A stretch of DNA of 64,000 nt from a virus (IMGVR_UViG_3300031992_000018:1-64000), one strand, 5' to 3'; shown: positions 1,263-62,056, numbered from the stretch's first letter. Notes: generated from the letters alone by a model not told the origin. Program-made: numbers and translations.

Positions 1263-4200
1263 ATGATGTCTATATTTTCATATATTAATGAAAATCTCGA
1301 AGATAAAAAGAAAGAAGAAGGATTAAGTATTCTTGATAAATCTTTAAATGGTGATAATGAAGAAATAAAAGAATTTGAAAAATTACTTCGTCCAAATGGT
1401 CCATGTATTTATGCATTTATTACTGATAAAGTAAATGATGCTATAAAAATTGGATATACTGATCAGCATCCACTTAAAAGAATAGAACAATGGAAAGAAG
1501 TATATGGAAAAGAAGAAGGTGAAGTAGAATGTCTTGGTTATTGGAGTAGTGAAGAAATTGATCAGAGTGGACAGAAAGTATTTTTCTGGGATCATGCTGT
1601 ACATGATAAAGTAACAAAGAAAGGATATGCTAATATTTCAAAAGAGCAATTTTATAAAATATTATCAGAAAAGGGTAAGAAAGTAAATGATGTTCATGAG
1701 CTTCATTATTCAAAAGAATTCTTCAGTAAATATAAGACTCTTTTAAAAGGACAATTATCAGATGAAGATAAAGTAGAATTATCTAAAGAATTAATTGAAG
1801 ATATTCTTATAGAAATGAAAAAATCTATTAAAGATGGAAAATCAGATTTTAAGTTATATAAATTTGATTCATCAGGTAAGACATCAAGTCAAAAGGCTGA
1901 TATTGTATGGGGTTCTCCTAAAGATTATCCAAATACAGATCTACAGGAAGATTGTATAAAGAAAGGTGTAGAAGCTATCAAGAAAGGTAAAAAGAATATT
2001 CTTATGGCTGCTGTTATGCGTTTTGGTAAGACTCATGCAGCATATGAAATAATAAAAGGATCTGGATTAAAAAGAATAGTTGTAGTATCTGCTAAAGCTG
2101 ATGTAAGAAAGGCTTGGAGAGATGATATTAACCATAAAGATTTTTATAAAGATTTTGTATTTGTAGAAGTATTAGATGAATTTAATTGGGATATTACATC
2201 TCTTGGATCTGATGAAAAATTAGTTACTAAGCATGAAAGAGTATATGAAGACACTGATATATTTGATATGTATGAGAATAAGACAATTATCTTTTTCTTT
2301 ACACTTCATGATCTATCAGGTTCACTTAATGAAATAAAATCAAAACATAAAAAGATATTTGATGAAGAATTTGATATGATGGTAGTTGATGAAACTCATT
2401 ATGGTTCTCATGCAAATTCATTTGGTAAAGTAACTAAATTAAATAAGAATATAGAAGTTGAAGATAATGCTGATTTTGAAGAAGAGGAAAAGATTGCTAA
2501 AGAGATGGAATCATTCAAAAATAAATTGAATATTAAATATAAAACAGTTCTTCAAGTTTCTGGTACACCATATTATATTCTTGCTTCTAATGAAATGATT
2601 GAAGATGATGCTGAGGTTATTTCTAAAGTATCATATACAGATATGTTAAATGCAAGAGATAAATGGGAGAAAGATCATCCAAATGAACCAAAATCAAATT
2701 CTCCTTATTATGGTGTTCCAACACTTCATAAAATTGGTCTTAGATTAACAAAAGAATGCCGTAGAGCTATTCAAAAATCAAATACGACTGATTCATTAAG
2801 TGCTTTGTTTGAAGTTAAATCTGGCAAGTTTAGATATGAAAAAGAGATAACTGGATTAATAAAAAGTTTATTTGGAGATGATAAAGAAGATACCTTTGCA
2901 TTCCTTAAGAATAAATCTGTAGAAGGTAATAAAGTTTGTAAGCATACTATTATGGTTCTTCCAAGAATAGAAGCATGTAAAGTAATGGAAAATCTTCTTA
3001 AAGAAATGAAGATTAACAGAGATATTATTCGTGTAGTTGGAAATGAAGGTAAATCAAATATAGATATTGAAACACTTAATAACAGATTGCTTGAAGATGA
3101 TGATAAGAATATAAAATCTATTGTATTGACCGTAAATAGATATTTGACTGGTGTTTCTATGCCTCTTATTGATTCTATGATATATCTTAAAAATGCTTCA
3201 TCACCACAAGAATATGATCAGAATATATTCAGACTTTGTACAAGAAATGTAAAGAAGGTTTCTAAAGGTGATAATGAAGAAGGACCTGAATATGTAAATA
3301 TGAAAGATAATGTATATTTGATAGACTTTAATATATCAAATATGTTCAATATGCTTGCTAATTCTGCTAAGATGAGAGCTTTAGCTGATGCTAAAGATGA
3401 TAAGAATATAAATATCATGGATAGAATAGCAGAATATATGAAAGAAGATCTTAAGAGTATTCCACTTTATTGTGAAGATGGTAAGAGTAAAGAAATTACT
3501 GGTAAGATGAAAGTAATTAACTCTAATGATCTTATGGAAATATATGCAAACTATAATAAAGATAAGAGTATAGCAGATGTAGCGAATGATGAAATTAATC
3601 TTTTTGATGGATTATTCGGTGATAAGAAATTCCAAGAAGTAATAAATGGAATGAATATAGAAGGAGATAAAAGTAAAATCAATATTGATGGTGTAAATGC
3701 TGATGGAGAAGATACTATAAATGTAGATAGTGGAAATGGTAAGAAATCACTTAAGGATTATGCCATTGATAAATTACCTGAAAAGAAACTTGAGAAAATT
3801 ACTAAAGAAAAATTCAAGAGCATAGTAAAAGGAATTCTATATTGTAATATTACTCTTGATAATCCTTATACAGATATCAAATCAATGATAGATGATTCAA
3901 AGAATGATGATGAACTTAGAGAAGCACTTAAAGACTTTAAGATTACTGTAGATGATATTGAAAAAGTATATGATATAATGTCACCTACATATAAAGAATC
4001 ATTTGATTATTTGTTATTGAAGATTTCATACTTAGCTCATGAAATCAAAGAGAAAGGTTCTGATGCTCTTGATAAAGCAATGCGTGGTCTTGGTAAGATA
4101 GATAAAAGTGAAGTTGTAACGCCGCCTGAAATTGTAAATAAGATGATTGACAAATTAGATGAATCAGATTATAAGAATGCAGAATCTATATTACTTGTAA

Positions 4201-5258
4201 ATGAAAAACAAGGTGAATTCTTCAAAGGATTGATTAGAAAATTCGGTAAAGAAATTGGTAAGAAATGTAAAATAGTCTGCTCAAGCAGTGTAGGTGAAAG
4301 ACTTACAAAGAAAATGTTGAAAACAGAAGGATTTAATGACTATATTAATAATATAATTATGTCCATTGGCGATGTCAATGGAGATGGTAAATATACTGTA
4401 AATGATTTCTTAGATATGAAGAATGAAGATATATTGAAAGAGAATGGTGGAAAGAAGTTTGATATTGTATTAATGAATCCACCATTTCAGGGGGCAACAT
4501 TACATTTGCAATTTATTGAAAAATGTATAGAAGTTTCTGAAAATACAATAGCTATATGTCCGGCTTCTTGGATAGATGACTATGCTGTAGTTGATGGTTG
4601 GAAGAAATCTCCAAAACAAAGATACATAACAAAATTAGGTAAACATCTTATTGATTATGAATATTTTAAGCCAGAAGATTTCCAAAAGATATTTAATATT
4701 GCAACTTGGACATCTGGAATGATAGGTTTATTTAATAGTAATAAAACATCTGAATTATATAAGTCAATAAGTAATAATCAAACAAGTAAGTTTGACAAAG
4801 AAATAATTGAAAAAGCAGCAAAGCTTATTTATACTGGACAACAGACTTCGGTAACAAAAATGTATAGGAAACATAAAGGAGAAGATGGATATGACTGGTT
4901 TATAAAACTTACAAGAGTTCATGGTCACATTAATAACAAAGACCAATATGATAATATAGCTCCTGATATAAAATATTCATTAAATATAAAAGACAAAGAG
5001 CAAAAAGAAGTTTATTTTAAGACAAAAAATGAGGCAGTAAATTTCTTTGAGTCAATAAAAACTACATTTTGTAAATACTTGAAGAAACTTGGATGTTATG
5101 GTTCTGGTGATTTTAATGGAGGATTACCATTTATGAATGATTATACTAAACCTTGGACAACACACAGGTTCTGTGAATACTTCGGTATAAGCAAAGATAC
5201 TGAAGACTATATAGATAAGTTTTTTGAAGAATTTTATAAAAGTTTTGAAAATGAATAA
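1263..5258 (+). CDS. Restriction-modification-like fusion: T5orf172/GIY-YIG-like nuclease + SF2 (ResIII-like) helicase + Eco57I-like N6-adenine methyltransferase; N-terminal capsid-targeting-like tag
   Basis: IYAF..IKIGYT..RIEQW; Walker A MRFGKT; VVDETH; SGTP; LTGVS..ID; VVTP; FDIVLMNPPF; N-terminus MMSIFSYINE. Confidence 0.8.
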   Translation: MMSIFSYINENLEDKKKEEGLSILDKSLNGDNEEIKEFEKLLRPNGPCIYAFITDKVNDAIKIGYTDQHPLKRIEQWKEVYGKEEGEVECLGYWSSEEIDQSGQKVFFWDHAVHDKVTKKGYANISKEQFYKILSEKGKKVNDVHELHYSKEFFSKYKTLLKGQLSDEDKVELSKELIEDILIEMKKSIKDGKSDFKLYKFDSSGKTSSQKADIVWGSPKDYPNTDLQEDCIKKGVEAIKKGKKNILMAAVMRFGKTHAAYEIIKGSGLKRIVVVSAKADVRKAWRDDINHKDFYKDFVFVEVLDEFNWDITSLGSDEKLVTKHERVYEDTDIFDMYENKTIIFFFTLHDLSGSLNEIKSKHKKIFDEEFDMMVVDETHYGSHANSFGKVTKLNKNIEVEDNADFEEEEKIAKEMESFKNKLNIKYKTVLQVSGTPYYILASNEMIEDDAEVISKVSYTDMLNARDKWEKDHPNEPKSNSPYYGVPTLHKIGLRLTKECRRAIQKSNTTDSLSALFEVKSGKFRYEKEITGLIKSLFGDDKEDTFAFLKNKSVEGNKVCKHTIMVLPRIEACKVMENLLKEMKINRDIIRVVGNEGKSNIDIETLNNRLLEDDDKNIKSIVLTVNRYLTGVSMPLIDSMIYLKNASSPQEYDQNIFRLCTRNVKKVSKGDNEEGPEYVNMKDNVYLIDFNISNMFNMLANSAKMRALADAKDDKNINIMDRIAEYMKEDLKSIPLYCEDGKSKEITGKMKVINSNDLMEIYANYNKDKSIADVANDEINLFDGLFGDKKFQEVINGMNIEGDKSKINIDGVNADGEDTINVDSGNGKKSLKDYAIDKLPEKKLEKITKEKFKSIVKGILYCNITLDNPYTDIKSMIDDSKNDDELREALKDFKITVDDIEKVYDIMSPTYKESFDYLLLKISYLAHEIKEKGSDALDKAMRGLGKIDKSEVVTPPEIVNKMIDKLDESDYKNAESILLVNEKQGEFFKGLIRKFGKEIGKKCKIVCSSSVGERLTKKMLKTEGFNDYINNIIMSIGDVNGDGKYTVNDFLDMKNEDILKENGGKKFDIVLMNPPFQGATLHLQFIEKCIEVSENTIAICPASWIDDYAVVDGWKKSPKQRYITKLGKHLIDYEYFKPEDFQKIFNIATWTSGMIGLFNSNKTSELYKSISNNQTSKFDKEIIEKAAKLIYTGQQTSVTKMYRKHKGEDGYDWFIKLTRVHGHINNKDQYDNIAPDIKYSLNIKDKEQKEVYFKTKNEAVNFFESIKTTFCKYLKKLGCYGSGDFNGGLPFMNDYTKPWTTHRFCEYFGISKDTEDYIDKFFEEFYKSFENE

Positions 5259-5763
5259 ATTCAACATAGAAAAATTCCTTTCTCTTGAAGGTTATGATAC
5301 AGATACTAGAGTATCTAGGCGTAAGAATTCTGATATCAATTCTCAAGAATTCTTCACTCCTTATTCTATAGTCAAGCGAATGTGTGATAAGGTATCTGAT
5401 GAAGATTGGGCAGATCCGAATAAGACATTCTGTGAACCTTGTTTTGGAAATGGTCAATTTTTGATATACATTATATATAATAGGATTCTTCATGGAGTAT
5501 CTTGGAAAAGAGCACTTGAAACTACTTATGGTCTTGAATTAATGGAAGATAATGTAATTGAGACTTATGAAAGAATTCTTAGTCTTCTTGATTCTTTAGA
5601 CGAATATGGAATTATTAAAGATTATGAAATAAATAGTATTCAAGAAGCTATGGATATAATGAAAAAGAATCTTGTTTGTCATGATTTCTTTACATGGAAT
5701 TTTGAGCAATGGAGAGAATATACAGAAGATGAATTGAAAGAAATAAATAAAAAGAGGAAATAA
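5251..5763 (+). CDS. N6-adenine methyltransferase SAM-binding module (partner of the upstream enzyme)
   Basis: QEFFTP, FCEPCFGNGQFL (motif I), YGLEL, LVCHDF; no NPPY/F motif; ATG overlaps the upstream stop. Confidence 0.75.
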   Translation: MNKFNIEKFLSLEGYDTDTRVSRRKNSDINSQEFFTPYSIVKRMCDKVSDEDWADPNKTFCEPCFGNGQFLIYIIYNRILHGVSWKRALETTYGLELMEDNVIETYERILSLLDSLDEYGIIKDYEINSIQEAMDIMKKNLVCHDFFTWNFEQWREYTEDELKEINKKRK

Positions 5764-6412: not shown

Positions 6413-6450
6413 AGCTGAACAATAAGTTCAGCTTTTTCTATATTAATATT

Positions 6451-7080
6451 ATGAAACAGATAGATACATATATAAAAGAGAATACAGAGTATAAAGATTA
6501 TACTTGTTATTTTGCTGATGATATTTCTACAGGATCTCCAAAAGATTTATTTCTTTCAGCATTTGTTGAAGAGTATATATTTAAATTATATTATGAAAGA
6601 AGAAGTGGTGTAAAAGTTATTAAAACAAATGAAGAAAATAAATCTGTAAAAGATAATTGGAATCACATTGATATAAAAACAAATCATAGTAATATTGATA
6701 TAAAAACTATAAGTAGAAAATGGAATTCTATTTCAGTAAATACTTCAATGTTAAATTCTAAAGTTAATATTGGTACTATAATAGAAGATAATGATAAAAT
6801 ATATATTGTAGTAAATGATATTAAAAAAATAAAAGATAAAGGAAAAGATAAAGGAAAATTCAGAGTATTTACAATTCCTATTTTATTAGAAGATCCATTA
6901 TATAAAACAGAATTATATTCTGATTTATCTGAAAAATATAAAAAATTAATTAAATTATATAATATTATACATGATTATAATAATGAAGGATTAAAAGAAT
7001 ATTCAAAAATAGTTCTTGATAAACTTACTCCTGTATTTCAAAAAGAATTTGGTTTAACTCCAAAAATAGAATTTGTATAA
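6451..7080 (+). CDS. Putative PD-(D/E)XK-like nuclease with capsid-targeting-like N-terminus
   Basis: VEEY..HID..IDIKT; N-terminus MKQIDTYIKE (ATG at 6451 preferred over the GTG at 6394). Confidence 0.4.
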   Translation: MKQIDTYIKENTEYKDYTCYFADDISTGSPKDLFLSAFVEEYIFKLYYERRSGVKVIKTNEENKSVKDNWNHIDIKTNHSNIDIKTISRKWNSISVNTSMLNSKVNIGTIIEDNDKIYIVVNDIKKIKDKGKDKGKFRVFTIPILLEDPLYKTELYSDLSEKYKKLIKLYNIIHDYNNEGLKEYSKIVLDKLTPVFQKEFGLTPKIEFV

Positions 7081-7377: not shown

Positions 7378-7412
7378 AAGAATCGATTAATCGATTCTTT
7401 TATTTTTATATA
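7376..7412 (+). terminator. Palindromic terminator followed by late-type motif
   Basis: AAAAGAATCGA-TTAA-TCGATTCTTTT, then TATTTTTATATA. Confidence 0.65.
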
Positions 7413-7426: not shown

Positions 7427-7954
7427 ATGAAAGAACTTAATACATATATAATAGAAAAATTACATTTAAATAAGGATATTAAACCAGTATATCATTATCA
7501 ACCTAAAGATAAGCAAGAATTAAAAATATTAATTGAAAAACTTATTAAAGAAAGAGGTAATGATGCTGATTTAAATGATATAGATGTTAGTAAAGTTACT
7601 GAAATGTATAGGTTATTTTATAAATCTAATTTTAATGGTGATATATCTAAATGGAATGTAAGTAATGTTAAATATATGGATAAAATGTTTTCTGATTCTG
7701 ATTTTAATGGTGATATATCATCTTGGGATGTAAGTAATGTTGAAGATATGTCTAGTATGTTTTTTAATTCTAAATTTAATGGAGATATTTCTAAATGGGA
7801 TGTAAGTAAAGTTGAAAATATGGAATATATGTTTAATGGATCAGATTTTAATGGAGATATATCAGATTGGGATGTTAGTAATGTTAATGATATGATAGAA
7901 ATGTTTATGTATTCTCCTTTACAAAATAATCCTCCTAAATGGTATCATGAATAA
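7427..7954 (+). CDS. DUF285/BspA-type repeat protein with capsid-targeting-like N-terminus
   Basis: Four FNGDISxWxVSxVxxMxxMF repeats; N-terminus MKELNTYIIEKLHLNKD. Confidence 0.85.
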   Translation: MKELNTYIIEKLHLNKDIKPVYHYQPKDKQELKILIEKLIKERGNDADLNDIDVSKVTEMYRLFYKSNFNGDISKWNVSNVKYMDKMFSDSDFNGDISSWDVSNVEDMSSMFFNSKFNGDISKWDVSKVENMEYMFNGSDFNGDISDWDVSNVNDMIEMFMYSPLQNNPPKWYHE

Positions 7955-8420
7955 TTTAAGTACATATATAGTTGAGAAACTTCATCTTAACAAAGATATT
8001 AAAATGACATCTAATAATTTTAAAAAAGATGAAGATTTCTTATGTGTTGGTTTATATATTAATACTGATAAAGAAATAAATATTAAATTATATAATTTTC
8101 TTTTTGAATCTTTTAAAGAATTATCATCAGATAATGAATTTAGTTATATATCTGATGGAAGAATTATTACAAAAAAGGTATTCAAAAATAATAATGGATA
8201 TTATGAATATTCTAGTAAAAATTACAGAAAACCTGGAGATTATATATCAGCAATATTTATAGATAAAAAAGACAGTATAATTTTTTTAAACTCATTATTG
8301 AATAACAATTTTAATATACATAATTATTTTGATAAACGAAATGATGATGAATTAAAACAATATAATATCATAAATCCTTCTAATGAAGAAATTAAAGAAA
8401 TGATAAATCAATTAAAATAA
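7947..8420 (+). CDS. Hypothetical protein with capsid-targeting-like N-terminus
   Basis: MNNLSTYIVEKLHLNKDIK, shared with the 7427 and 28248 ORFs. Confidence 0.7.
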   Translation: MNNLSTYIVEKLHLNKDIKMTSNNFKKDEDFLCVGLYINTDKEINIKLYNFLFESFKELSSDNEFSYISDGRIITKKVFKNNNGYYEYSSKNYRKPGDYISAIFIDKKDSIIFLNSLLNNNFNIHNYFDKRNDDELKQYNIINPSNEEIKEMINQLK

Positions 8421-12919: not shown

Positions 12920-14869
12920 TTAAAATGAATATAAATCCATACCTTGTGACATATACATATTTCCCAACATATCCATTTCATTTGTATTATTAGAAAATGG
13001 ATCAGAAATAGTAATTATATTATTTATAGAATTATATATATTTATTGATTCAAGTTCTTGATAATTATTGTCATTATTAGATTTATTCATTAATTGCATT
13101 GTTTCTATTTCTTCAACAATATCTTTATATTTAGGAGTATTTTTTAACATTGGTATCTGACAAAGAGTCATAACAATATCATCGTGACCTGATGATGCTT
13201 GATAAGAACCATTACCATTTTTATCTTCAAAGTTTTCTATTTCTCCTATAGTTCTAAGATCAGTAATTTCAATATTGAATTTTTCAAGTTCCATTTTAAG
13301 AAGTGCGCAAGCTGTCTTCTTATTATTAGCAGTAAATTTAATTCCTGGAATAGTTTTTCTCTTAGAATTATTATGTCCAGGTATATTTTCATCTTCTGGT
13401 CCTTTTTTATATTGTATCAATCTTGTTGTATCAAATCCTTGACTAGATATATTAAATCTCCATAAAGATTCTCTCATATAATCTGGTTCATTTAAATTAA
13501 GTATATATTGATAAAAAAGAGCACCATATGTATTCCATTCTATTGAGAATATACACCTGTCATTATTAAATAATTGATTACATAATAACCAATATTCAAG
13601 AGCTGCATGTTCAAGATCAAGATTATTACATTTCCAATAACCAACTTGTTTGAATTTATCTTTACCAGTCATTTGTAATATATGAAATACTGTATTATCA
13701 GCATCACCTCCACCACCTTCAGCAAGGTCAGCAAGTATTACAAAATAACCAGTCTTTAATTCTTCAGTATCAAAATTTGGATGCCAATATAAACAATCTT
13801 TTTTCTGTATATATATTTCAAAGTCTGGTCTTGATTCAAATAATATTGATTTATCTCTAAGTACACCAAGACATTCTCTTGAAACAAGACATAAATCTGA
13901 TGCAGCAAATTCTGTACCAAATTGATAATAGAAAGCTTCTTTACTTCCTAATTTACCAATCATTTCATTTTTCCATTTTTCTGTTCTCTTTTCCCATTTC
14001 TTAGTATCTTTATTAAATTGTGGTACTTGATCCCAGTCTACTTTAAATGGAGCATAACCATTTCTTTTTTCTATAGCTCCTTTATATAATTCATAAAATA
14101 GATTAAATCCATTTTGTGTACTCATAATAGCAACATGAGCATTAGGAAGAGTTACTACAGTAGGAAGAATATTCTGATAGAAAAGTTCTACATCATTCTT
14201 AGGACACCAAGCAAACTCATCAAGAATAAGGAAGTTGATAGTTTTACCAAGTCCAGCTGTTGGTGAGAAAGCTTCAGTTGAAATTGATGAGTTATTATCA
14301 AAAGATATTTCATGTTGGTTCCATTTCATTGTACCAGCCTTAAGATAATAAGGAAGATTAAGGTACATATCTTTAAGTTTTGAAAGAAGGTCAATACCTG
14401 CAGGACCTGATTTTGAAAGAATAAGTCCTGTCATATCAATATTGAAAAGAATAACCCAAAGACAGAATATCGCAGTAGTTGTTGATTTACCAGCTTGACG
14501 GCATGATAACATAATTGTAAAATTATTCTTCTGGAGCATTCTTAAATATTCAACCTGATAATCTCTTAAGACACATGGTCTAAGTCCTTCTGGTGTCATA
14601 AGAAAGCACTTAGAAGCGAAATAAACAGGATCTTCCTTACATTTTTTATAGTCATCAACTTCTTCTTGAGTTCTTTTATATACTAAATCTGGTTTTAACA
14701 ATTGAACATTCTTTCCACAAAAAGGATTACTTTTAAGAGGTAAACCTTTCTTTATAGCATCAACAGCTAATTTAAATGCCTTTGTTGTCCATACAATTCT
14801 TTCAGCCGCTTGTCCATTAATTGTTTCCTTTACAGGATTAAATTCATAAACAAATTCTTTTTTAGCCAT
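12920..14869 (-). CDS. Terminase large subunit (T4 gp17-like)
   Basis: C..DPVYF, LRDYQ, SCRQAGKSTT (Walker A), LILDEFA (Walker B), STQNG, ADLAEG, GHDDIVM; probable start MAKKEF at 14869. Confidence 0.95.
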   Translation of the reverse strand: MAKKEFVYEFNPVKETINGQAAERIVWTTKAFKLAVDAIKKGLPLKSNPFCGKNVQLLKPDLVYKRTQEEVDDYKKCKEDPVYFASKCFLMTPEGLRPCVLRDYQVEYLRMLQKNNFTIMLSCRQAGKSTTTAIFCLWVILFNIDMTGLILSKSGPAGIDLLSKLKDMYLNLPYYLKAGTMKWNQHEISFDNNSSISTEAFSPTAGLGKTINFLILDEFAWCPKNDVELFYQNILPTVVTLPNAHVAIMSTQNGFNLFYELYKGAIEKRNGYAPFKVDWDQVPQFNKDTKKWEKRTEKWKNEMIGKLGSKEAFYYQFGTEFAASDLCLVSRECLGVLRDKSILFESRPDFEIYIQKKDCLYWHPNFDTEELKTGYFVILADLAEGGGGDADNTVFHILQMTGKDKFKQVGYWKCNNLDLEHAALEYWLLCNQLFNNDRCIFSIEWNTYGALFYQYILNLNEPDYMRESLWRFNISSQGFDTTRLIQYKKGPEDENIPGHNNSKRKTIPGIKFTANNKKTACALLKMELEKFNIEITDLRTIGEIENFEDKNGNGSYQASSGHDDIVMTLCQIPMLKNTPKYKDIVEEIETMQLMNKSNNDNNYQELESINIYNSINNIITISDPFSNNTNEMDMLGNMYMSQGMDLYSF

Positions 14870-14920: not shown

Positions 14921-15412
14921 ATGAAAAGTATTGAAAGATATATTCTAGAAGGTTCTAGATTTGTAGTTTTTGTAATGTGTGGTCTTCCTGGATCTGGTAA
15001 ATCTACATGGGCTAAGGAGAACCATCCAGATTTGACTATTGTTTCTAGAGATGTTATTCGTGCAAAACTTGGTTTTACTAAGGATGCTGATGAAAAGGCT
15101 GTTCTTACTGCAGGCCAAGAAAAACAAGTAACTACAGAGGAATATTGGCAGATATCTAAACTTGCTAAGAAGAAACAGTCATTTATTGTAGATGATACAA
15201 ATTCAGTACCTAAATATAGAAAGGAATTACTTAAGACTCTTAAAAATTATGGAGCTAAGATAATTGGTGTTAATATTGAAACACCATTAGAAATTTGTAT
15301 TAACCGTCGTAAAGGACAAATTCCTAAAGATGTAATGGAACGTCTTGCTGCTAAAAGACTTCCTCTTAGAAAAGAAGATGTAGATGAACTATTAAATGTA
15401 AAAGGTTACTAA
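14921..15412 (+). CDS. AAA_33/polynucleotide-kinase-like P-loop kinase with capsid-targeting-like N-terminus
   Basis: MCGLPGSGKST, SRDVIR, IVDDTN, TPLEICINR; N-terminus MKSIERYILE. Confidence 0.85.
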   Translation: MKSIERYILEGSRFVVFVMCGLPGSGKSTWAKENHPDLTIVSRDVIRAKLGFTKDADEKAVLTAGQEKQVTTEEYWQISKLAKKKQSFIVDDTNSVPKYRKELLKTLKNYGAKIIGVNIETPLEICINRRKGQIPKDVMERLAAKRLPLRKEDVDELLNVKGY

Positions 15413-17160: not shown

Positions 17161-17852
17161 TAATTTACTTTTGTATTATTTGTTAATAATGATTGTGTAT
17201 TAGCAAGAGTATTTACACATTCTTCAAACCCTTTTGCAAGAGGAGTTGTATATACACCAAATGTTGCAGCTGCTTGAAGAGATAAAAAATTACCTTTTAG
17301 TTGTTCTAACATATTTACAAGGGTTTGTCCAAAAACTGCTGGTTGCATTTCTTTTGATTCATCACCAATAAATACACCACCATCTTTTACTGTTATGCTA
17401 GATTTTCCAGATGTTATCTTTATTATATTATCTGGAGTTAATACTATATTTGTATCATTTCCATTTTTTATTACAATACCTTCTGAAGGTCTATAATATA
17501 CATATACTCCATTTTCTCCAGATGACCTACTTAAAAGTACTTCTCCTTCTTGATAATCATTATCATCAGATGAAATAATTTCTTTAGTATCATCATTAAG
17601 TTGGAACATTGGAATATACCAGAATTCATGATAATCTGAATCACAAAAAATCCATATCTTAGAACCAACACGTAATTTAGAAAATCTCTGATATCCATTC
17701 ATAGTAAATGGATATATCCATGGAAGACCTTCTTTATTCATTACTGATGAATCAAAAAGACCAGGGGAATCAGCTTTTATTCTACCAATATATTTTGGAT
17801 CATTCACATCTATTACTATTCCAGGTAATACTTTTATATCTTTAAGTTCCAT
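17160..17852 (-). CDS. Baseplate central spike (gp5/gpV/VgrG-type OB fold)
   Basis: GIVIDVNDPKYIGRIKA..LPWIYP..GSKIWI followed by beta-strand repeats. Confidence 0.75.
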   Translation of the reverse strand: MELKDIKVLPGIVIDVNDPKYIGRIKADSPGLFDSSVMNKEGLPWIYPFTMNGYQRFSKLRVGSKIWIFCDSDYHEFWYIPMFQLNDDTKEIISSDDNDYQEGEVLLSRSSGENGVYVYYRPSEGIVIKNGNDTNIVLTPDNIIKITSGKSSITVKDGGVFIGDESKEMQPAVFGQTLVNMLEQLKGNFLSLQAAATFGVYTTPLAKGFEECVNTLANTQSLLTNNTKVN

Positions 17853-18295
17853 TATCTAGTTATTGAATATGTTACATGTATTTCATCTCTTCCTTTATGA
17901 TATCCTTTCCAAATTTGTATTACTGGAAATTCTCCAGAATCAAACATTTTCTTAAACTCTTCTTCAGAGAAATAATTTAAATCTGGAAACATCTCAGTAA
18001 ATAATGCTGCACATCTATCTGTAGGAATTTCAGAATATATCTTTTCAGTACTTACATCACCACCATTAGGTACACCATATCTTTGAAAGAATAAATCATA
18101 TGTATACAATGATGTAAGTCCGCAATTTGGAGCAGCGGTATCTCTAATTATACTTGCACACTTAGTTGTAAAATCTCTAAGTATAGTATCAATTATTTCT
18201 TCATCAGTAGTTTCTTTATTAAATTTAAATAAACCACCAATAATTTTCTTTACATCGCTTGTTGCTTCAGCAATATATTCTACTAAATGCTTCAT
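17852..18295 (-). CDS. Hypothetical protein with capsid-targeting-like N-terminus
   Basis: MKHLVEYIAE; directly downstream of the portal gene. Confidence 0.7.
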   Translation of the reverse strand: MKHLVEYIAEATSDVKKIIGGLFKFNKETTDEEIIDTILRDFTTKCASIIRDTAAPNCGLTSLYTYDLFFQRYGVPNGGDVSTEKIYSEIPTDRCAALFTEMFPDLNYFSEEEFKKMFDSGEFPVIQIWKGYHKGRDEIHVTYSITR

Positions 18296-18310: not shown

Positions 18311-20122
18311 TTATGCTTGTGTAGTTTCACTTGATTCTGGTTGTACATCACCTAACATTTCACTATCAATTTCTCCTCCACTTTCTTCACTTTCAGCTCC
18401 GCTTTCTTCACCACCTTCTTTTCCACCACCTTCTTCTCCTTCTGTTCCAGTTTCTTCATCTCCTCCCATTTCTTCATCTTCTTCTCCTCCTTCAGCTCCA
18501 CCAGCATTCTTTCTTCTCTTCTTTTCTTCTTTCATCTTCTTATTAAGTTCAAGATCAGCTTCACTCATCTTAAGATACTTAATAATCAAGAATTCTGGAT
18601 CAAAGAATGGTTCTTCTTCACCTTCATCATTTGTTATTACTAAGCTATCCTTCATTGTACCAATGAATTCAACTCTCTTAGTCATAACTTCCATTTCAGC
18701 AAGCTCTGTAAACTGGTTATATGAATTAAAATGAAGAGATATTGAATCAAGTATTCTCTTATCATTCTTTATATCTGGTATATTAAGTGCAATCTGAATT
18801 CTTATAGGTTTAAGAATAATTTCAGAAAAAGCACTTCTCATTCTTGTTACAAATCTTGAGAAATTAATTTCATCTCTTAATTGTTGTGTAGGATCAGAAC
18901 CAAACCAAGTTGCTTGTGCTTCTCTATCAAAATGAGATTCTGGAATTTTACTCATCTTATAAAGATTTGATAAGAAGTATTTAATTTGGTCACTATCATT
19001 AAGTTGTGGACCATTATCAACAATTGTTTCAATCTGTGGAGTACCAGCTTCATTTTCAGGCATCCAATATTCTTTATTAAATGGCATATTTACTTTACCA
19101 TTTACTTGAAGTTCACCAGTATCTACATTGAAAGATATATCTTCTTTATATCTGTTCATTGCTTGAGAAAGAGTCTGCATACCCTTTGCTTTATTCATTC
19201 CATTTATAGGAATAGTAAACATTGTCTTAAATGAAGATTGAGTTACTGTCCAAATAATCTGTGCTTGTTCAACAATACGGTAAATATTGAATGGACGAAT
19301 AAGACGTTCAAGATATGACTGTCTTTCTGTTACACCTGTATCTTCATATTTTACATAGATAATTTGTATATCAAGAAGATATCTTTCTTTACCTTGAATA
19401 CCTTTGAATTGTACCCAATATGTTGTTCCATTTTTAACAACTTTTGTTAAAGTAACTGGGTCAAGATCTATTATACCAATAATTGAATGAGGATTTTCAA
19501 GGTCATCATAAATAATTTCATATGCAAGAATACCTTCAATTAACCATCTCTTAAAATCATCCCATGCATTTCTTTTCCAGTTAAGGAACATATACATTTT
19601 ATAGAATACTGTATCAACAGCATTTCTAAGTTCTTCAGCTGATTTTTCAGTTAATTGTTGTGTAAGACCAGTATCGATAAATGGTTGAGCAATATATGCG
19701 TCGTCGTCATCATATACAATACATTCATTAGACATAACATCAAGAATATCTTCGAGTTCAGGTTGAGCAGCCATTTTTCTAAGAATTACTCTCTTTTGTT
19801 CAAGAGTTTTCTCTCTAAAATCCTTATCTTCTTCACCTTTTTGTTTCCAGTTATTCATCATACCACCATAGATTGACTGGTTTAATAACAAGTCATCTTG
19901 AGGTTGAAGTTGTTTATCAGCTGGAATAGCTCTCATATTCTTCATTATATCATCAGAATAATTCATTCCATAATGAGATAATGAATAAAGTATTTTAGAA
20001 ATTCTACTTTGTTTTTTAACTGTTTGATTACTTAACATTTGTTGTGTTAAGATATTAGATTCAACAGCTTCCATTATATTTTGTTCATTTTCTAGAACAT
20101 TATTTAAATTACCGAATACCAT
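18311..20122 (-). CDS. Portal protein (T4 gp20-like)
   Basis: PELEDILD.MSNECIV, SYLERLIRPFN, EYWMP, YF...LY..SKIP.S, RDEINFSRFV.RMR; acidic C-terminal tail. Confidence 0.92.
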   Translation of the reverse strand: MVFGNLNNVLENEQNIMEAVESNILTQQMLSNQTVKKQSRISKILYSLSHYGMNYSDDIMKNMRAIPADKQLQPQDDLLLNQSIYGGMMNNWKQKGEEDKDFREKTLEQKRVILRKMAAQPELEDILDVMSNECIVYDDDDAYIAQPFIDTGLTQQLTEKSAEELRNAVDTVFYKMYMFLNWKRNAWDDFKRWLIEGILAYEIIYDDLENPHSIIGIIDLDPVTLTKVVKNGTTYWVQFKGIQGKERYLLDIQIIYVKYEDTGVTERQSYLERLIRPFNIYRIVEQAQIIWTVTQSSFKTMFTIPINGMNKAKGMQTLSQAMNRYKEDISFNVDTGELQVNGKVNMPFNKEYWMPENEAGTPQIETIVDNGPQLNDSDQIKYFLSNLYKMSKIPESHFDREAQATWFGSDPTQQLRDEINFSRFVTRMRSAFSEIILKPIRIQIALNIPDIKNDKRILDSISLHFNSYNQFTELAEMEVMTKRVEFIGTMKDSLVITNDEGEEEPFFDPEFLIIKYLKMSEADLELNKKMKEEKKRRKNAGGAEGGEEDEEMGGDEETGTEGEEGGGKEGGEESGAESEESGGEIDSEMLGDVQPESSETTQA

Positions 20123-20255
20123 ATTACTATAATAATTATAAATACTATCTTATAGATAAAAATAATTTTTTAATAAATATTTTTGATATTTTTGAAAAAA
20201 TATTTGAATTATTTGTTTTATTTACTATATTAACTTTGAATTTAATTTTAGTTAT

Positions 20256-24903: not shown

Positions 24904-25251
24904 ATGAAGATTAATGTAAAATTATTTGATCCTAATTATAGTGTAAATAAATATGGTGAAGGAGTTTTAGAAAATGCTATTAATGAATACATAAAAAATG
25001 GTAATAAATTTGTTTCATGTAATAGTGATTCTACTGATTTAAAAGATATTATTGGTACTGTTGAGCATATTGATAGAACTGATAATGGTAAAGTATTTGC
25101 TGATATAGAATTGTTAGATACTCCTCAAGGAAAGATATATCAAGAAGCATTAAATTATGGTATGATTAATTTTGGTGTTTCTGGATATGGTAATAAAAAT
25201 GAAGATGGAGTTATAACAGATTTTGAAATAAAAAGTATAAATGCAATATGA
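24904..25251 (+). CDS. Short prohead-protease (T4 gp21/S77-like) paralog, probably lacking the catalytic His
   Basis: Y....L..AI..Y, VFADIELLDTPQGKI, FGVSGYG. Confidence 0.6.
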   Translation: MKINVKLFDPNYSVNKYGEGVLENAINEYIKNGNKFVSCNSDSTDLKDIIGTVEHIDRTDNGKVFADIELLDTPQGKIYQEALNYGMINFGVSGYGNKNEDGVITDFEIKSINAI

Positions 25252-26721: not shown

Positions 26722-26780
26722 AGTTGTAATTAATATTACAACTTTTTTTTATTTTTATATAACTAATATAAAGATAAATA

Positions 26781-28004: not shown

Positions 28005-28009
28005 CGCTT

Positions 28010-28255
28010 ATGAAAAATTTAGCTACATATCTTGATGATTTCATGGAAAATGAAGAACAAGGATATTTTGAATCTTGTAAAAAAAGTAAAATATCTTGTG
28101 GCAAAATTACTGAAAAAGATTTTATGAAAGCAAATAGAAAGGCTTCAAGAGATGAAGAAATTTCTAATCATGGTAAACCAGTAAGAATGGGAGGCCTTCA
28201 TAAATCAAAGAAAAATTATTCAAGAAAAGATAAACATAAACAGGATTATGATTAA
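28010..28255 (+). CDS. Small protein with basic C-terminus; variant capsid-targeting-like N-terminus
   Basis: MKNLATYLDD; HKSKKNYSRKDKHK. Confidence 0.7.
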   Translation: MKNLATYLDDFMENEEQGYFESCKKSKISCGKITEKDFMKANRKASRDEEISNHGKPVRMGGLHKSKKNYSRKDKHKQDYD

Positions 28256-28562
28256 TATAAATTCATATATAATAGAAAAACTTCATCTTAATAAAGATAC
28301 ACTTAAAGAAAAAGATATAGATGAAACAGTAATTGATTTACTTAAAGAATATGGTGAAGAACTTGATTTACATGATGCTTTAGGATATGAATTTAAAGAT
28401 GAAAATGGAGATGTCATAGACTATATTTGGTATTCTAGAGATAGTATAAGATATTCATATGAAGATAATGCAGCTGAAAGTAATGTATTAAATGATTTAT
28501 ATGAATTATTTACTAAAGATGAACTTACAAAAATATATGATTTTTTAAAAGATAAAATATAA
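28248..28562 (+). CDS. Hypothetical protein with capsid-targeting-like N-terminus
   Basis: MININSYIIEKLHLNKD. Confidence 0.7.
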   Translation: MININSYIIEKLHLNKDTLKEKDIDETVIDLLKEYGEELDLHDALGYEFKDENGDVIDYIWYSRDSIRYSYEDNAAESNVLNDLYELFTKDELTKIYDFLKDKI

Positions 28563-28604
28563 AAATATAAACAGAATGATTAAATAAATTCATATATATT
28601 TAAA

Positions 28605-29024
28605 ATGAAAAGTTTATTACAATTTATTAAAGAAGCAAGTGAAGAAAAAGTAGCTTCTTCAAAAAAATTAACATTCAACTTTACAGATTTTGAAGGAGCT
28701 GAAGAAACAATCAAATCTCTTCAAGAAATTGCTGATAAAGATGGTGTAAATGTAGAAATAGAAGATTCTAAAGTAACTGTAACATTAACTAAGGATAATG
28801 TTGAAAGTGCTGAAGGTGTATTTGAACTTCTTCAGGATTATATCCAATTAAGAGGTAAAGATCAAAAGAGAGCGAGTGATGAACAATATGCTCAGAAGTG
28901 TCATAAACTTGAAAGTACTCTTAATGATTGGAGAGAATTTGTAGATGATTCTCAAGAAGATGATGAAAATTCTGAAGAGGACAAAAAAGATGACAAAAAG
29001 GATGATAAAAAGGAAGAAGAATAA
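28605..29024 (+). CDS. Acidic protein with capsid-targeting-like N-terminus
   Basis: MKSLLQFIKE. Confidence 0.75.
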   Translation: MKSLLQFIKEASEEKVASSKKLTFNFTDFEGAEETIKSLQEIADKDGVNVEIEDSKVTVTLTKDNVESAEGVFELLQDYIQLRGKDQKRASDEQYAQKCHKLESTLNDWREFVDDSQEDDENSEEDKKDDKKDDKKEEE

Positions 29025-29026: not shown

Positions 29027-29344
29027 ATGAAAAATATTACTCAATATTTAACAGAATCTAAGACAATTTCTAAAACAAATTATCAAGAATTCATTAAAAA
29101 TGATGGAATGGATCAAGAACTTAGAGAATGGTATAAAAATGAATATAAGACTGATTCTCTTGGAAATGAACTTCCAACAATGACATTTGCAGAAGTACTT
29201 GCTCAATTTTTTAATGATCTTGATAAATTTGAAAAAGAAACTTGTGCAGATGATTCAATCGTAAGAGAAAGAATATTCAAGAAACTTACAGAATTATGCA
29301 AAGTTAAATATGATAATTTTTACGATTATTGGTTACACAATTAA
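29027..29344 (+). CDS. Hypothetical protein with capsid-targeting-like N-terminus
   Basis: MKNITQYLTE; DSIVRERIF..L. Confidence 0.75.
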   Translation: MKNITQYLTESKTISKTNYQEFIKNDGMDQELREWYKNEYKTDSLGNELPTMTFAEVLAQFFNDLDKFEKETCADDSIVRERIFKKLTELCKVKYDNFYDYWLHN

Positions 29345-39379: not shown

Positions 39380-39424
39380 GAATAAATCATATTTTTATAT
39401 ATAGAAAGATAATTAAAATAATAT

Positions 39425-42400: not shown

Positions 42401-43723
42401 ACTATTTATTATAATGTAATTAATATATATGGTGATAAATATGATTTAGCTTCATTTATTGGTATTGGTAGAAGTGATGGCGGAACAGTTTATTATGGTG
42501 GTTGGTGGCCAAATGTAGATGGTGAAGGAGGAACAAATGGTAAACTTATAGAAGATAATATTTATGCTGTATATAAATTAACTGGACAAGAAGCTAGTTT
42601 TGGTTTATTCTCACAGAAATATTCATTCTGGACAATAAATCTTAAAGGTAAATCATCTGGTTATTCACAAGATTTATGTCAAGCAAATGAAATTGAATTT
42701 GTTGGATTAAGTAAAACACCATATAGTAAATCAAGAAATGCTTCATATTATAATAAAGTAACTATTGGTAAAAATGTTTATATGGTTAATAGAACAACTA
42801 ATAATACTACTAGCTTAAAAACTATTTCAAAGAATTATTATGATAATAATAAAACATCATTAAAATATACAACAAATAATAAAACTATTAAAGTTTCTAA
42901 TAATATAACAGGTATAAAGATTAAAAATGCTGTTATACCAAATTGGGATGATGTATTCTATTTACAACCTAAGATTACATATACATCAACTGGTTCTTGG
43001 GAATCTAAAGATGGTGATAAATCATTTAATGATAATAAGAAATGTACATTTGGAAATGCTAAGATTGTATCTATAAATATATCAAGATGGGATGATTTCA
43101 CAATGAATATTTCATTTAATGTTGTTGCTGGAGATACAACTCATCTTCCAAATAATACACAGATTATAGAATATGTTGGATCATCATTTGGTAGAAGTAA
43201 TATAATATTCTTGCAAGGAAGTAAGAGTTATGAATATAGTCAATTCTATAATTCATTAAGTGTAAGTTGTACAAATTGGGTAAATAATACATGTACAGTA
43301 ACATTTAAGTTATCTAATCCATATAGTTTAAATAATACTCCAGGATTAGAGGTTAAAGAATATTTCTATAGTTTAACTTCAGATACATTAAAACCTGTTT
43401 ATGTTGACAGAGAAATACCATTTAGCGGAAAGAATAATAGAAATTATATTAAAGCTTCAGCTCCATTATTAGCAAATATAACAGGTATTAAATTCTGGGT
43501 TGGATTGAATACAACAAGTACATGTGTTGTTGAAAAACAATATATATCTTCATTATCATCAATTGGTACAGAAGTATTAATAAGTGGTAATTACAAGACA
43601 GGATGTGCTAAATCATTATCAATTGTAAATGCTAATACAACACAAAATACTAATATTTCTAATAAAAACTTTGGTAATAAAGAAAAGAATTTATCAAATA
43701 CATTATTACCTGCTGAAAAATAA
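39425..43723 (+). CDS. Long tail-fibre-like protein, paralog family member 3
   Basis: Same N-domain, NL.KAS...YGV repeats, coiled coil, long unique C-terminal region. Confidence 0.65.
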   Translation: MKTQLGNTTKSFGKEYNISVSNLGGEGVLSTYSYLRENTIIIDSKVDSNFEDIGSYSIFMTDSNGNPVRLTYTIQPGNGLYPDPTDTDILRMVIDDSSIMANDGDEIYVNKHNIIDNDTLTVDPTDDGNSKRGRIHVVTQNLEKASDARYGVVTSDQNTTYIPYEYYKNINSDPDAEPEYQKIELNNPGDIPQDYDLLVESGKIMVNTQNLDTVDDSSNRDGIVKHNSETFRTIEAVDGKLTVLTYNLDKASYTDYGVIKTDGITIQADDSGVVSVLTDGLEHSNKSKFGISKGDEVTINSLDGVLSVNTRNLSYATYTAPGVVIIDKYSMSVNEGKIEVNRYNEIESILDRNNPEHDLFRSDIEDLKNRVSKLETAALQEVIEFLIPVGDPETSLPQPIFDRDTWTVNHYSDRKTISFSIKTNCKFNVNVEYKNGTNDYSQVELINVRYGDEDTIPANQLANTIFNATGNTVKTLYFTFVVRNYDKDDNLASINTQAIISAASINDSSIKQTQFHIFKCWNNIAFTEDKPVKPEIPEPIIIPESYLLTHVGTEKIYAYNYAYNFKEVVLSYNKTTSNNFFFTTTIDATYCYCTYTDGQYVWGYKTDVPTYQCPKIGGNSSYDINIKYQNIDEDGGVVGGQVDSLDWLNTYITASYNTTRAFNVLTVFSKKPLTEKSRAAYITCYLNTVDLNNSTESNIKLNTKFGEIKKFNNATLSHVNYTYTSEQDLSQKSTNIESFKNTVLNTLSQNITDDSLLSLKRTNINNAKNNVTNLNTSNTSYSSVFSKIIENDITEFNNVKAELDNYYTNNLNSKTPETYQKEKYIAYYTYVKKLDKYAYKLADEYNKFVDILSNEKNKFDNKFIINNNEVLIKNNPNNYNSYTYLTLFYSEKMDLVQPIINVTSSINAKDNGIKFSVIRNEKSLLKINNYPLLIQYNYINKSGNLVNSDGTSLNPSNRYEKYLLNIPKESTTYTNVLLNNVINGTNTETTTETIYYNVINIYGDKYDLASFIGIGRSDGGTVYYGGWWPNVDGEGGTNGKLIEDNIYAVYKLTGQEASFGLFSQKYSFWTINLKGKSSGYSQDLCQANEIEFVGLSKTPYSKSRNASYYNKVTIGKNVYMVNRTTNNTTSLKTISKNYYDNNKTSLKYTTNNKTIKVSNNITGIKIKNAVIPNWDDVFYLQPKITYTSTGSWESKDGDKSFNDNKKCTFGNAKIVSINISRWDDFTMNISFNVVAGDTTHLPNNTQIIEYVGSSFGRSNIIFLQGSKSYEYSQFYNSLSVSCTNWVNNTCTVTFKLSNPYSLNNTPGLEVKEYFYSLTSDTLKPVYVDREIPFSGKNNRNYIKASAPLLANITGIKFWVGLNTTSTCVVEKQYISSLSSIGTEVLISGNYKTGCAKSLSIVNANTTQNTNISNKNFGNKEKNLSNTLLPAEK

Positions 43724-43735
43724 TTTATTTAATAA

Positions 43736-45193
43736 ATGTCTAAATTAGGTTATATTCAAAATTCCTATGGTAAGCAATTCAATATAGGTATTTCAAATAC
43801 ATATGCAACTAATATATTATCCGGAACTAATCTTCCAGGTAATATGTTAATTATATCTTCTCCTATAGATGAAGATAATAATGATATTGGATATTATTCA
43901 ATATTAGTAACTGATTCTTATGGAAATCCTATAAGATTGACATATACTATTTCTCAGAATAATGGATTACAATATTCTAAAGATAAAGACTCATTAATAT
44001 TGAATATTGATAATAATACTATTATTGAAAATAATCATCAATTAACAGCAAATATTTCATATCTTATTGATAATAATACGATTAAATATGAAAACAATAA
44101 AATTGATATAAATATTGATAATCTTAATAAAGCAAATGATTATAAAAGAGGATTATTTAAGATTGATGATAATACAATAAAATCAGATAATGGAAAATTA
44201 TATGTTGATACATCTAATTTAAAGTTTGTAAATGAAAATACTTCTTATGGAATTTGTTTAGGAGATAATAATACAATTATATCAAATCAAGGTATATTAT
44301 CAGTAAATACTAATAATTTAACAATTGCAAATGAAAATCAATTTGGTATTGTAAATGGATTAAGTGATAATATTAATGTAAATGATGGTGTTATAAGTGT
44401 TATTACTGATAATCTTGAAACATGTACAAAAGATAGAAGTGGTATTGTATCTATAGATAATTCAACAATTATTTTAGATGATAAAAAACAATTAACAATA
44501 AATACTGAAAATCTTAATAAAGTATCAGTAAATAATAGAGGAGTATTTAAATATGATGATAATGTTTTTGATATAATTGATGGTAAGTTAACTGTAAAAA
44601 ATGTTAAAAATATTAAAGAAAATTTAAATAAAATAAAAACAGATATTTCATTATTAAAAGAAAAAATATCTGAAATACATGATGATTTAAAAACATATAA
44701 AGTTGGTATTTTACAACCAATGATTTTAGATTTCCATTGCTGTGATATAACAACATTTGTTCTTGAAAAACCTAATTATTTAAATGAACAAATAAATGAT
44801 ATGGAATTCCAATATAAAAGTGTTGATTTTATAATATCTACTAATTGTCCATTTATTATCAGTGTTAAATTTGAAAACAATATTGATCCACAAGTATCTC
44901 TTTATGAAATTAATTATGATAATAAGCATGTTTATTATGGAACTAATGGATTAATTCAGATATATCAGACAACACAAGAGAAAAAAATACCAATTAAATT
45001 TACTTTTATAGCAAAGAATTATTATAAAAATAATCAGAAAGAATCTACAAATGAAGTTAAAGTTAAGATTACAGTATCTTATTTAAATGATTCAACAATT
45101 AATAAATCAATATTATATTCTATTGTAAGATTTAATTCTGGTTATAATACTGAAATTGTTTATGATGAAAGCAATGTAGATAAATTAATATAA
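43736..45193 (+). CDS. Tail-fibre-like protein, paralog family member 4
   Basis: Same N-domain and repeats; C-domain similar to member 1 (F.I.T.C.F...YSI.R.NS). Confidence 0.65.
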   Translation: MSKLGYIQNSYGKQFNIGISNTYATNILSGTNLPGNMLIISSPIDEDNNDIGYYSILVTDSYGNPIRLTYTISQNNGLQYSKDKDSLILNIDNNTIIENNHQLTANISYLIDNNTIKYENNKIDINIDNLNKANDYKRGLFKIDDNTIKSDNGKLYVDTSNLKFVNENTSYGICLGDNNTIISNQGILSVNTNNLTIANENQFGIVNGLSDNINVNDGVISVITDNLETCTKDRSGIVSIDNSTIILDDKKQLTINTENLNKVSVNNRGVFKYDDNVFDIIDGKLTVKNVKNIKENLNKIKTDISLLKEKISEIHDDLKTYKVGILQPMILDFHCCDITTFVLEKPNYLNEQINDMEFQYKSVDFIISTNCPFIISVKFENNIDPQVSLYEINYDNKHVYYGTNGLIQIYQTTQEKKIPIKFTFIAKNYYKNNQKESTNEVKVKITVSYLNDSTINKSILYSIVRFNSGYNTEIVYDESNVDKLI

Positions 45194-49553: not shown

Positions 49554-50048
49554 TTAATATATTACAAGTCCTAAATTTTTATCTATATAATAATTTTTAT
49601 CTTCTATAGTTTGATCTCCTGGAGAACGTCTTTCATTCTTTAATTTTTGTAAATTCTTTCTTGTCTTTGATATTGTTTCTTCTACTTTATTCTTTTTTGT
49701 TTTTGATTTATATTCATCTAATAAATCATTTTCAAATGAAGAACCAGTTAATGCTTTATTTATAGAATCAATATCTGGAACATATATAATCATTCCTTTA
49801 TTTAATTCAAATGGATTAGATATACCATTTATTTTACAAATAACATCTGCATATTTATCATCACCATAAACTGCTAATGATATTAAATCTGGTCGAGCAA
49901 TATAGTTTTCATCAACAAATATAGCTCTTGTATTATTTAAATTAATATTATTAAATGTATTAACTGTTAAATCTAAAAACTTTGTAGGTTTATTATCTTT
50001 ATATATAGTTAATACTGGTTTTTGTTCTAATATAGGATAATCTAACAT
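49554..50048 (-). CDS. Baseplate wedge protein (T4 gp53-like, LysM-like)
   Basis: ARPDLISLAVYG...ADVICKINGISNPF.L..G..IYVP. Confidence 0.8.
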   Translation of the reverse strand: MLDYPILEQKPVLTIYKDNKPTKFLDLTVNTFNNINLNNTRAIFVDENYIARPDLISLAVYGDDKYADVICKINGISNPFELNKGMIIYVPDIDSINKALTGSSFENDLLDEYKSKTKKNKVEETISKTRKNLQKLKNERRSPGDQTIEDKNYYIDKNLGLVIY

Positions 50049-50134
50049 TATCAAATAAATATCTTTATATATAAAAATAAAAATGATTGACAAATATTAT
50101 GTCAATCATTTAAATATTTTAGTATTTTTAGATG

Positions 50135-61744: not shown

Positions 61745-61774
61745 ATTATTTTTATAAAAAGATTAATTGATTAA

Positions 61775-62056
61775 ATGAAAAAATTAGTTGATTATATAAA
61801 TGAATCAAAAGGAGATCCTATTGATGAACAATGGATAAATGATGAAAAACCAGTAATGACTAAAGATGGCCGTCAAGCTATTATTAAATCAATAGATATG
61901 GATGAGGTTCCTAATATAATTAAAGGAGCAGTTAAATGGAATGAAGATCTTCTTGATTATGAATGGTTAGATGATGGAACATGTAAGAAGGCTCTTGACC
62001 GTCTTGGAAATCCTAAGAAACCTGATGAAAGTGATAACCTTGTAAAAGCAATTTAA
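61775..62056 (+). CDS. Hypothetical protein with capsid-targeting-like N-terminus
   Basis: MKKLVDYINE; PVMTKDGRQA; late-type motif at 61747. Confidence 0.75.
   Translation: MKKLVDYINESKGDPIDEQWINDEKPVMTKDGRQAIIKSIDMDEVPNIIKGAVKWNEDLLDYEWLDDGTCKKALDRLGNPKKPDESDNLVKAI

Follow-up and report, generated by a model that had tools for sequence, protein, structure and literature searches.

A window of 64,000 nucleotides (nt) from the IMG/VR virus record IMGVR_UViG_3300031992_000018, an uncultured giant phage of the sheep gut, was analysed; the window holds 61 called genes and has a guanine-plus-cytosine (GC) content of 24.8%. The whole contig (G000) spans 168,026 bases, carries 215 called genes and is rated 59% complete. 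Eleven genes of the window encode proteins that begin with a similar ten-residue peptide, here called the tag, which ends in Glu at position 10 in ten of them and in Asp in the remaining one (Table 1). In the following, genes are referred to by their start coordinates; the gene at 18295 lies on the minus strand. The initial annotation of the window had named these eleven N-termini, ten as tags and one as a variant, and all of its coordinates and residues proved to be exact.

Table 1. Tagged genes, head and baseplate genes, and copies of the promoter-like motif in the window.
Feature	Coordinates	Strand	Remarks
Tagged gene, MMSIFSYINE	1263..5258	+	1331 residues; T5orf172-like N-terminal motif
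Tagged gene, MKQIDTYIKE	6451..7080	+	209 residues; no family match
Tagged gene, MKELNTYIIE with EKLHLNKD extension	7427..7954	+	DUF285/PARCEL repeat protein; paralogues at 106046 and 164161
Tagged gene, MNNLSTYIVE with EKLHLNKD extension	7947..8420	+	157 residues
Tagged gene, MKSIERYILE	14921..15412	+	P-loop kinase (AAA_33, Pnkp/PSTK-like)
Tagged gene, MKHLVEYIAE	17852..18295	-	147 residues; directly downstream of portal gene
Gene with variant tag (Asp10), MKNLATYLDD	28010..28255	+	81 residues, basic
Tagged gene, MININSYIIE with EKLHLNKD extension	28248..28562	+	104 residues, acidic
Tagged gene, MKSLLQFIKE	28605..29024	+	139 residues, very acidic
Tagged gene, MKNITQYLTE	29027..29344	+	105 residues
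Tagged gene, MKKLVDYINE	61775..62056	+	93 residues
T4-type large terminase gene	12920..14869	-	Terminase_6N and terminase PHROGs
T4-type portal gene (gp20 family)	18311..20122	-	PF07230, 248.6 bits; phrog_213
gp25-like baseplate wedge gene	49554-50048	-	
TATTTTTATATA	1229..1240	+	34 nt before ATG of the 1331-residue tagged gene
TATTTTTATATA, exact	7401..7412	+	26 nt before tagged gene 7427; 7947 next in unit
TATTTTTATATA, one mismatch	20153..20164	-	42 nt before portal gene; tagged gene 18295 after portal
TATTTTTATATA, exact	26750..26761	+	heads unit 26781-29344; four tagged genes at its end
TATTTTTATATA, exact	39390..39401	+	before tail-fibre-like gene (1432 residues)
TATTTTTATATA, exact	50068..50079	-	before gp25-like baseplate wedge gene
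TATTTTTATATA, one mismatch (TATTTTTATAAA)	61747..61758	+	28 nt before tagged gene 61775

The tag is a real and highly non-random feature. The regular expression ^M..[ILM]..[YF][IL].E matched 10 of the 61 window genes and 23 of the 215 contig genes, and only 3 of 838 internal Met positions. Shuffling residues 2-30 in 2000 rounds gave a mean of 0.06 matches with a maximum of 3, which places the observed frequency well above background and upholds the pattern drawn from the window. An independent degenerate DNA pattern yielded 22 matches on the contig, compared to 1 with the reversed pattern. To guard against circularity, the residue excess at each of positions 2-15 was also calculated over all 215 N-termini with no motif supplied. 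This revealed an excess of K2 (p 3e-19), L4 (p 1e-8), Y7 (p 2e-11), I8 (p 9e-7) and E10 (p 3e-6), with the other positions near background. A relaxed search, from which look-alikes of signal peptides were taken out, brought the total to about 38 tagged genes (17% of the contig genes, about one in six), of which 27 have Glu10, one (28010) has Asp10 and ten are variants. The consensus reads M-K-x-[L/I]-x-x-[Y/F]-[I/L]-x-E.

In nine contig genes, including 7427, 7947 and 28248 in the window, the tag is directly followed by the near-invariant sequence EKLHLNK[D/N]. The codons of the conserved residues vary synonymously in roughly genome-like proportions (Ile8 as ATT in 10 and ATA in 15 cases; Lys2 as AAA in 28 and AAG in 5), which indicates that the conserved entity is the peptide and not a DNA copy. 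The proteins behind the tag had been described as unrelated, and BLASTP comparison from residue 23 onward agreed, except for the trio of DUF285 paralogues 7427, 106046 and 164161. A short N-terminal peptide is thus common to otherwise unrelated proteins, in 10-11 genes of the window and about 38 of the contig.

Eight of the eleven window cargoes have no assigned function and are mostly small and acidic. The description of the cargo as enzymes and effectors holds for only three of them, namely the nuclease/helicase/methylase-like protein of 1331 residues (1263), the Pnkp-like kinase (14921) and the DUF285 repeat protein (7427). The 1331-residue protein contains a ResIII/SF2 ATPase domain at residues 226-395 and a methyltransferase-like stretch at residues 1044-1120; a PDB sequence search with it gave no match. 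Its best phage homologue, from Prevotella phage Lak-A2/C1, is 37% identical from residue 39 onward and possesses a different N-terminus, with LNE ending at residue 20. In Lak-A2 (L147), the gene for this homologue (1252-5571) has 27 TAG codons that are read through, and its product starts with MKSYIVKLIQTYMDIISLNE; the L-x-E at residues 18-20 may mark a Lak-type propeptide. In the kinase, the P-loop kinase domain starts at residue 16, so that the tag is an add-on. Protein atlas searches gave a weak lead to a PD-(D/E)XK-like fold for 6451-7080, with a template-modelling (TM) score below 0.5, and a papain-like lead for 17852-18295 whose value of 0.77 is at chance level. Just before the tagged gene 6451, a terminator-like hairpin (6415-6440; GCTGAAC ... 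GTTCAGC followed by a T run) is located within an otherwise continuous string of plus-strand genes.

In phage T4, the internal proteins IPI, IPII and IPIII carry a capsid-targeting sequence (CTS) that the prohead protease gp21 cuts off (Mullaney and Black 1996; reviews: PMC9026906, PMC3012670). The initial annotation had pointed to this MKTYQEFIAE-type peptide, and the T4 record (NC_000866) contains it as described: IPII and IPIII start with MKTYQEFIAE followed by A, and IPI starts with MKTFKEF...ITE, cut after ITE and likewise followed by A. The first ten residues of IPIII suffice for loading into the head; mutations link targeting to residues 4 and 7 and processing to residues 8 and 10, and a CTS with Asp10 is blocked in processing but not in targeting (PMC9026906). 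The cut motif of gp21 lies after L/I-x-E (PMC9026906). Like the CTS, the tag is a ten-residue N-terminal peptide on unrelated bodies: it opens with M-K, has a bulky hydrophobic side chain at position 4, an aromatic one at position 7, I/L at position 8 and Glu at position 10, and contains the [I/L]-x-E cut motif. Its conserved residues include those that T4 needs at positions 4, 7, 8 and 10. In contrast, position 4 is L/I in the tag and Y in T4.

Judged by its packaging genes, the phage is T4-related, as the window holds both a gp20-type portal and a gp17-type terminase gene. Gut metagenomes of sheep and cattle contain the contig repeatedly. By portal, the closest cultured phages are PAU, PTm1 and MA9V, at just 32-35% identity, and the portals of Lak megaphages are 30% identical. 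A portal search returned 307 related loci, and four related records (G001-G004) were taken whole. G001 (portal 67% identical, 26% GC) carries 22 tags and has neither Peptidase_S77 nor Gp23 on its contig. G002 (portal 57% identical, 37% GC, complete) carries 13 tags together with both Peptidase_S77 and Gp23. In G003 (portal 42% identical) a single protein matched the regular expression, and the head genes are flanked by proteins starting with MKNLLTFAEFINE-S and similar sequences, look-alikes of the tag with 13 residues. G004 (169.6 kb, 27% GC) lacks a portal gene and carries 31 tags, EKLHLNK extension included, together with an S77 protease-scaffold fusion and Gp23; an alignment search with capsid proteins brought it up, and it shares its sample of origin with the closest relative by portal. 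The same search located a gp23-type capsid gene on a 435-kb contig whose portal is 66% identical to the present one. G004 shares almost no genes with the present contig (one common gene is 79% identical) and has the appearance of a complementary portion of a closely related genome.

In G004, tagged genes adjoin head maturation genes. Here, an array of seven tagged genes lies directly upstream of the gene for a 581-residue Peptidase_S77 protease-scaffold fusion (36.5 bits, cut-off 27), which is followed by the gene for the Gp23 capsid protein (104 bits). Two motifs that hold His85 and Ser140 in T4 gp21, GEL-x-HP and SSRG, are invariant in the relatives' proteases. The N-termini of the relatives' proteases read MVFE-T, LIYE-T and YIYE-T, comparable to LLIE-T in T4 gp21, while the scaffold half of the fusion contains about eight repeats of QNW[VI]xEEFAPEV, G003-type scaffolds repeat NDYIVE, and the capsid propeptide ends in EIHE-S. 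The same aromatic/[ILV]-x-Glu motif is present at the start of the protease, in the repeats of the scaffold and in the propeptide of the capsid protein, and the cut motif was found in these proteins of the relatives G004, G002, L160 and L131. A complex prediction for the G004 protease-scaffold with a G004 tagged protein scored 0.00, which is evidence neither way. Besides the tag, a second common N-terminus, MK-x-L-[YV]-ES-[IL]-[LF] with L-x-E at residues 4-6, occurs on several proteins of G002, L130, L131 and L028, and L132 has seven paralogues starting with MSILK-x-T; several leader families seem to be in use among these phages.

The tagged genes are also associated with a promoter-like motif. 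TATTTTTATATA occurs 16 times on the contig, compared to 2 copies expected, and in 15 of these an ATG follows at a distance of 26-35 nt. Exact copies stand in front of seven tagged genes, the gp25-like baseplate gene, the gene for a 2096-residue protein and a tail-fibre-like gene; in front of the portal and terminase genes, the copies have one mismatch. Its position before the baseplate gene suggests that the motif serves virion (late) genes. Directly behind TATTTTTATATA lie 7 of the 38 tagged genes and 8 of the 177 untagged ones (p 0.007). Within at most four genes downstream of an exact copy, the shares are 58% and 13%, respectively, and they rise to 82% and 28% when one mismatch is allowed. 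The statement that most tagged genes lie behind a late-type motif is consistent with the window, where 10 of the 11 belong to TATTTTTATATA units; the exception, 14921, has just a copy with three mismatches. Judged by sequence, the tagged genes may be expressed late, together with the head genes. Of the words sampled from 26500-29600, two sheep-gut metatranscriptome runs contained fractions of 0.33 and 0.25, figures that were not used as evidence of expression.

Comparison with the relatives showed that orthologues gain and lose the tag. The G002 homologue of kinase 14921 starts at the P-loop and is untagged, and a RimK-like enzyme has untagged orthologues in both G001 and G002. The G002 homologue of the 81-residue protein (28010) lacks the first 25 residues, and the G001 orthologue of the 93-residue protein (61775) is 79% identical with a different and longer N-terminus. 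The 28605 protein has a tagged orthologue in G001 (38% identical). The slot behind the portal gene is occupied by different tagged genes, or by none, in close relatives. At the DNA level, similarity between G004 and the present contig is limited to tag-coding stretches; the tag-coding DNA of 28248, for instance, is 90% identical over 51 nt to that of a G004 tag, and nothing else matches. The peptide pattern persists in the 37%-GC relative G002. These genome comparisons indicate that the tag is a portable module.

Combined, these observations suggest that the tag is a T4-type capsid-targeting propeptide, deployed in a greatly expanded system, and we consider this reading fairly likely. In the proposed mechanism, the tagged proteins would be made late with the virion parts, and the tag, chiefly through residues 4 and 7, would dock them to the scaffolding core as the prohead assembles. 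A gp21-type serine protease (Peptidase_S77, scaffold-fused in the clade) would cut after Glu10, recognising [I/L]-x-E, whereupon the mature proteins would remain beside the DNA inside the head and most likely be delivered into the cell along with it. The tag-coding stretch would be gained, lost and swapped between unrelated genes, which would lead to about 38 tagged genes among 215. The phage thus probably packs and delivers dozens of different proteins. With regard to the initial proposal of a T4-type tag serving as a general head-loading label, the position match, the T4-related phage, the relatives' protease, the modularity and the promoter motif all agree with it at the sequence level; the protease and capsid genes, however, were not found on this 59%-complete contig, and the proposal is partly supported. 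More tentatively, a clade of huge rumen and gut phages might use the T4 tag as a general, recombination-portable address, with about one sixth of the genes packed and injected as a first-strike proteome. Its cargo would include many small acidic proteins as well as the nuclease/helicase/methylase-like protein and a kinase acting on RNA/DNA ends, and EKLHLNK could be a second signal, for example for sorting in the head or for the order of ejection; this extended version seems possible rather than probable.

Several points weigh against the capsid-targeting reading. Docking, cleavage, retention in the virion and injection are all read from resemblance to T4 at the sequence level. Peptidase_S77, scaffold and Gp23 were not found on this 59%-complete contig, either with Pfam or with the relatives' proteins by tblastn and phmmer, so that the protease, which is above the Pfam cut-off in the tag-bearing G002 and G004, is linked to this phage through relatives, as is the gp23-type capsid protein through G002, G004 and the 435-kb contig. 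The kinship of G004 rests in turn on tag style, GC content, sample of origin and the one gene at 79% identity. The tag pattern was not found in the nearest cultured relative, Tenacibaculum phage PTm1, which leaves no cultured proxy. The cargo is mostly acidic (median isoelectric point 4.9), whereas T4 IPII and IPIII are basic. Ten tags lack Glu10. In the nine genes with EKLHLNK[D/N], this sequence sits past the supposed cut site, and plain removal of ten residues leaves it unexplained. Finally, the cut motif is not depleted in the cargo bodies (27 observed, 27.9 expected), which is a neutral test. Pfam and PHROG scans of the large unannotated contig proteins detected no hidden capsid or protease gene, and a 13-bit match at 24904-25251 in the protease/capsid search was not confirmed by Pfam. 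The tail-sheath family PF04984 had no match in four genomes, complete ones included, which makes that null result uninformative.

The shared N-terminus might instead address another partner, such as a modifying enzyme, a chaperone, a host protease (as a degron) or a phage compartment, its likeness to the T4 CTS being convergent. The conserved EKLHLNK extension, which suggests recognition past ten residues, would suit such a partner. We nevertheless regard this explanation as unlikely, since it does not account for the same motif in the clade's protease, scaffold and capsid propeptide. In addition, no consistent radical-SAM partner was detected, with none in G001 despite its 22 tags and a spurious sub-threshold match in the present contig. 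In G004, a radical-SAM gene (67015-68211) adjoins one tagged gene; with 31 tags among 217 genes there and no such enzyme in G001, this adjacency is probably due to chance. The tag also contains no hydrophobic stretch and is thus not a secretion signal.

Alternatively, the tag could send proteins to the prohead core and be cut there, with most of the tagged proteins acting as disposable core or scaffold accessories (compare T4 gp67 and gp68), or being degraded and expelled, rather than serving as injected cargo. The identity of the tag motif with the scaffold repeat motif is in line with this, as are the many tagged proteins that are small and acidic like scaffold fragments and the tagged gene located after the portal gene, where T4 has genes 67 and 68. 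However, the slot behind the portal is variable and dispensable in close relatives, where it may also be empty, and for this reason the portal-adjacent tagged gene was rejected as a conserved counterpart of gp67/gp68. Furthermore, a kinase, a helicase/methylase-like enzyme and a RimK-like enzyme would be useless as scaffold, and the internal [ILV]xE density of the cargo bodies is ordinary rather than scaffold-like, which makes an accessory role for most of the tagged proteins quite improbable.

It is barely plausible that selection acts on the nucleic acid, either as a junction at which gene cassettes are shuffled by recombination or as an element of translation start, and that the peptide is a by-product: some neighbouring tags do share upstream non-coding sequence as well (array 109258-110416), the similarity between G004 and the present contig is confined to tag-coding DNA, and T4-type phages shuffle genes at repeated regulatory cassettes (PMC2839356), but a DNA-level or translational role is unlikely given that synonymous codons vary at conserved residues, the free positions (3, 5, 6 and 9) are scattered among fixed ones, the pattern of the peptide recurs at 37% GC, highly expressed virion genes are untagged, and recombination would explain the spread of the tag and not the keeping of positions 4, 7, 8 and 10.

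Further features of the contig concern other parts of the phage. A TelA (toxic anion resistance) homologue lies at 20490-21599, between the portal and polymerase genes (PF05816, 229.6 bits). The DNA polymerase gene at 23135-24676 spans only residues 1-506 of the 926-residue G001 homologue, and the search for a C-terminal half elsewhere on the 168-kb contig found none. The gene may be split, comparable to gp43A/B in some T4-type phages. Four tail-fibre-like genes starting at 31171, 38417, 39425 and 43736 (31171-45193) have in common an N-terminal module MS-K/Q-LGYI-x-N-x-YGKQ-x-NIG-x-SNT, probably a shared virion-attachment domain on exchangeable fibres. Outside the window, 150466-153186 holds four tandem paralogues starting with MK-x-QIR-x-x-x-FETNSSS.

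In comparison with T4, portal, terminase, S77 protease and gp23 capsid protein are all present in the clade, and sets of internal proteins also vary among T4-related phages. The differences lie in the number of tagged genes, about 38 (17% of the contig) as opposed to 3 in T4 and a few more in other T-even phages, in a mostly acidic cargo that includes large enzymes, and in the extra EKLHLNK[D/N] behind many tags. Moreover, in this clade the protease forms one fusion protein with a scaffold that contains W-[VI]-x-E repeats.

Phage P1 DarB is a large helicase/methyltransferase-type protein with a short N-terminal head-packaging signal, delivered against host restriction (PMC9024508). The 1331-residue tagged protein would be its functional analogue, with the general theme of helicase and methylase-like domains behind an N-terminal packaging signal alone in common, and the order of domains differs. 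A tblastn search of 50,697 phage records with this protein revealed homologues in Lak megaphages and no match in P1. Unlike the tag, the P1 signal covers 10-30 residues, is not common to the Dar proteins and has no known cleavage after Glu (PMC9024508). The giant phages phiKZ, 201phi2-1 and SPN3US, whose ejection and inner-body proteins carry propeptides, likewise pack dozens of proteins, employ a gp21-related protease that cuts after Glu in a three-residue motif, and have paralogues with identical N-termini (PMC5694885, PMC7411985). However, their propeptides mostly exceed 100 residues, the motif is A/S/G-x-E, and in SPN3US only about eight proteins undergo processing (PMC5694885, PMC7411985). 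The present tag is short, uniform and T4-like. The exchange of tags also resembles shuffling at early promoter-stem-loop (PeSL) elements in hyperplastic regions of T4-type phages, where short repeated junctions serve for the exchange of arrays of small variable genes (PMC2839356). The PeSL repeat consists of an early promoter and a stem-loop (PMC2839356), while the repeat found here includes the first codons of the gene and a late-type motif.

The system is most likely a greatly expanded variant of a known mechanism. As the mechanism itself is not new, what makes the system interesting is its scale, its cargo and the portability of the tag in evolution; the tag also illustrates how an address of ten residues can pass from gene to gene. 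Should the tag function as it does in T4, the injected set of pre-made proteins would be far larger and more varied than that of any phage studied so far. In that case, the tag would also provide a simple sequence marker for injected counter-defence proteins in the genomes of uncultured phages, and it would offer a compact, naturally occurring signal with which phages of Bacteroidota could be loaded for protein delivery.

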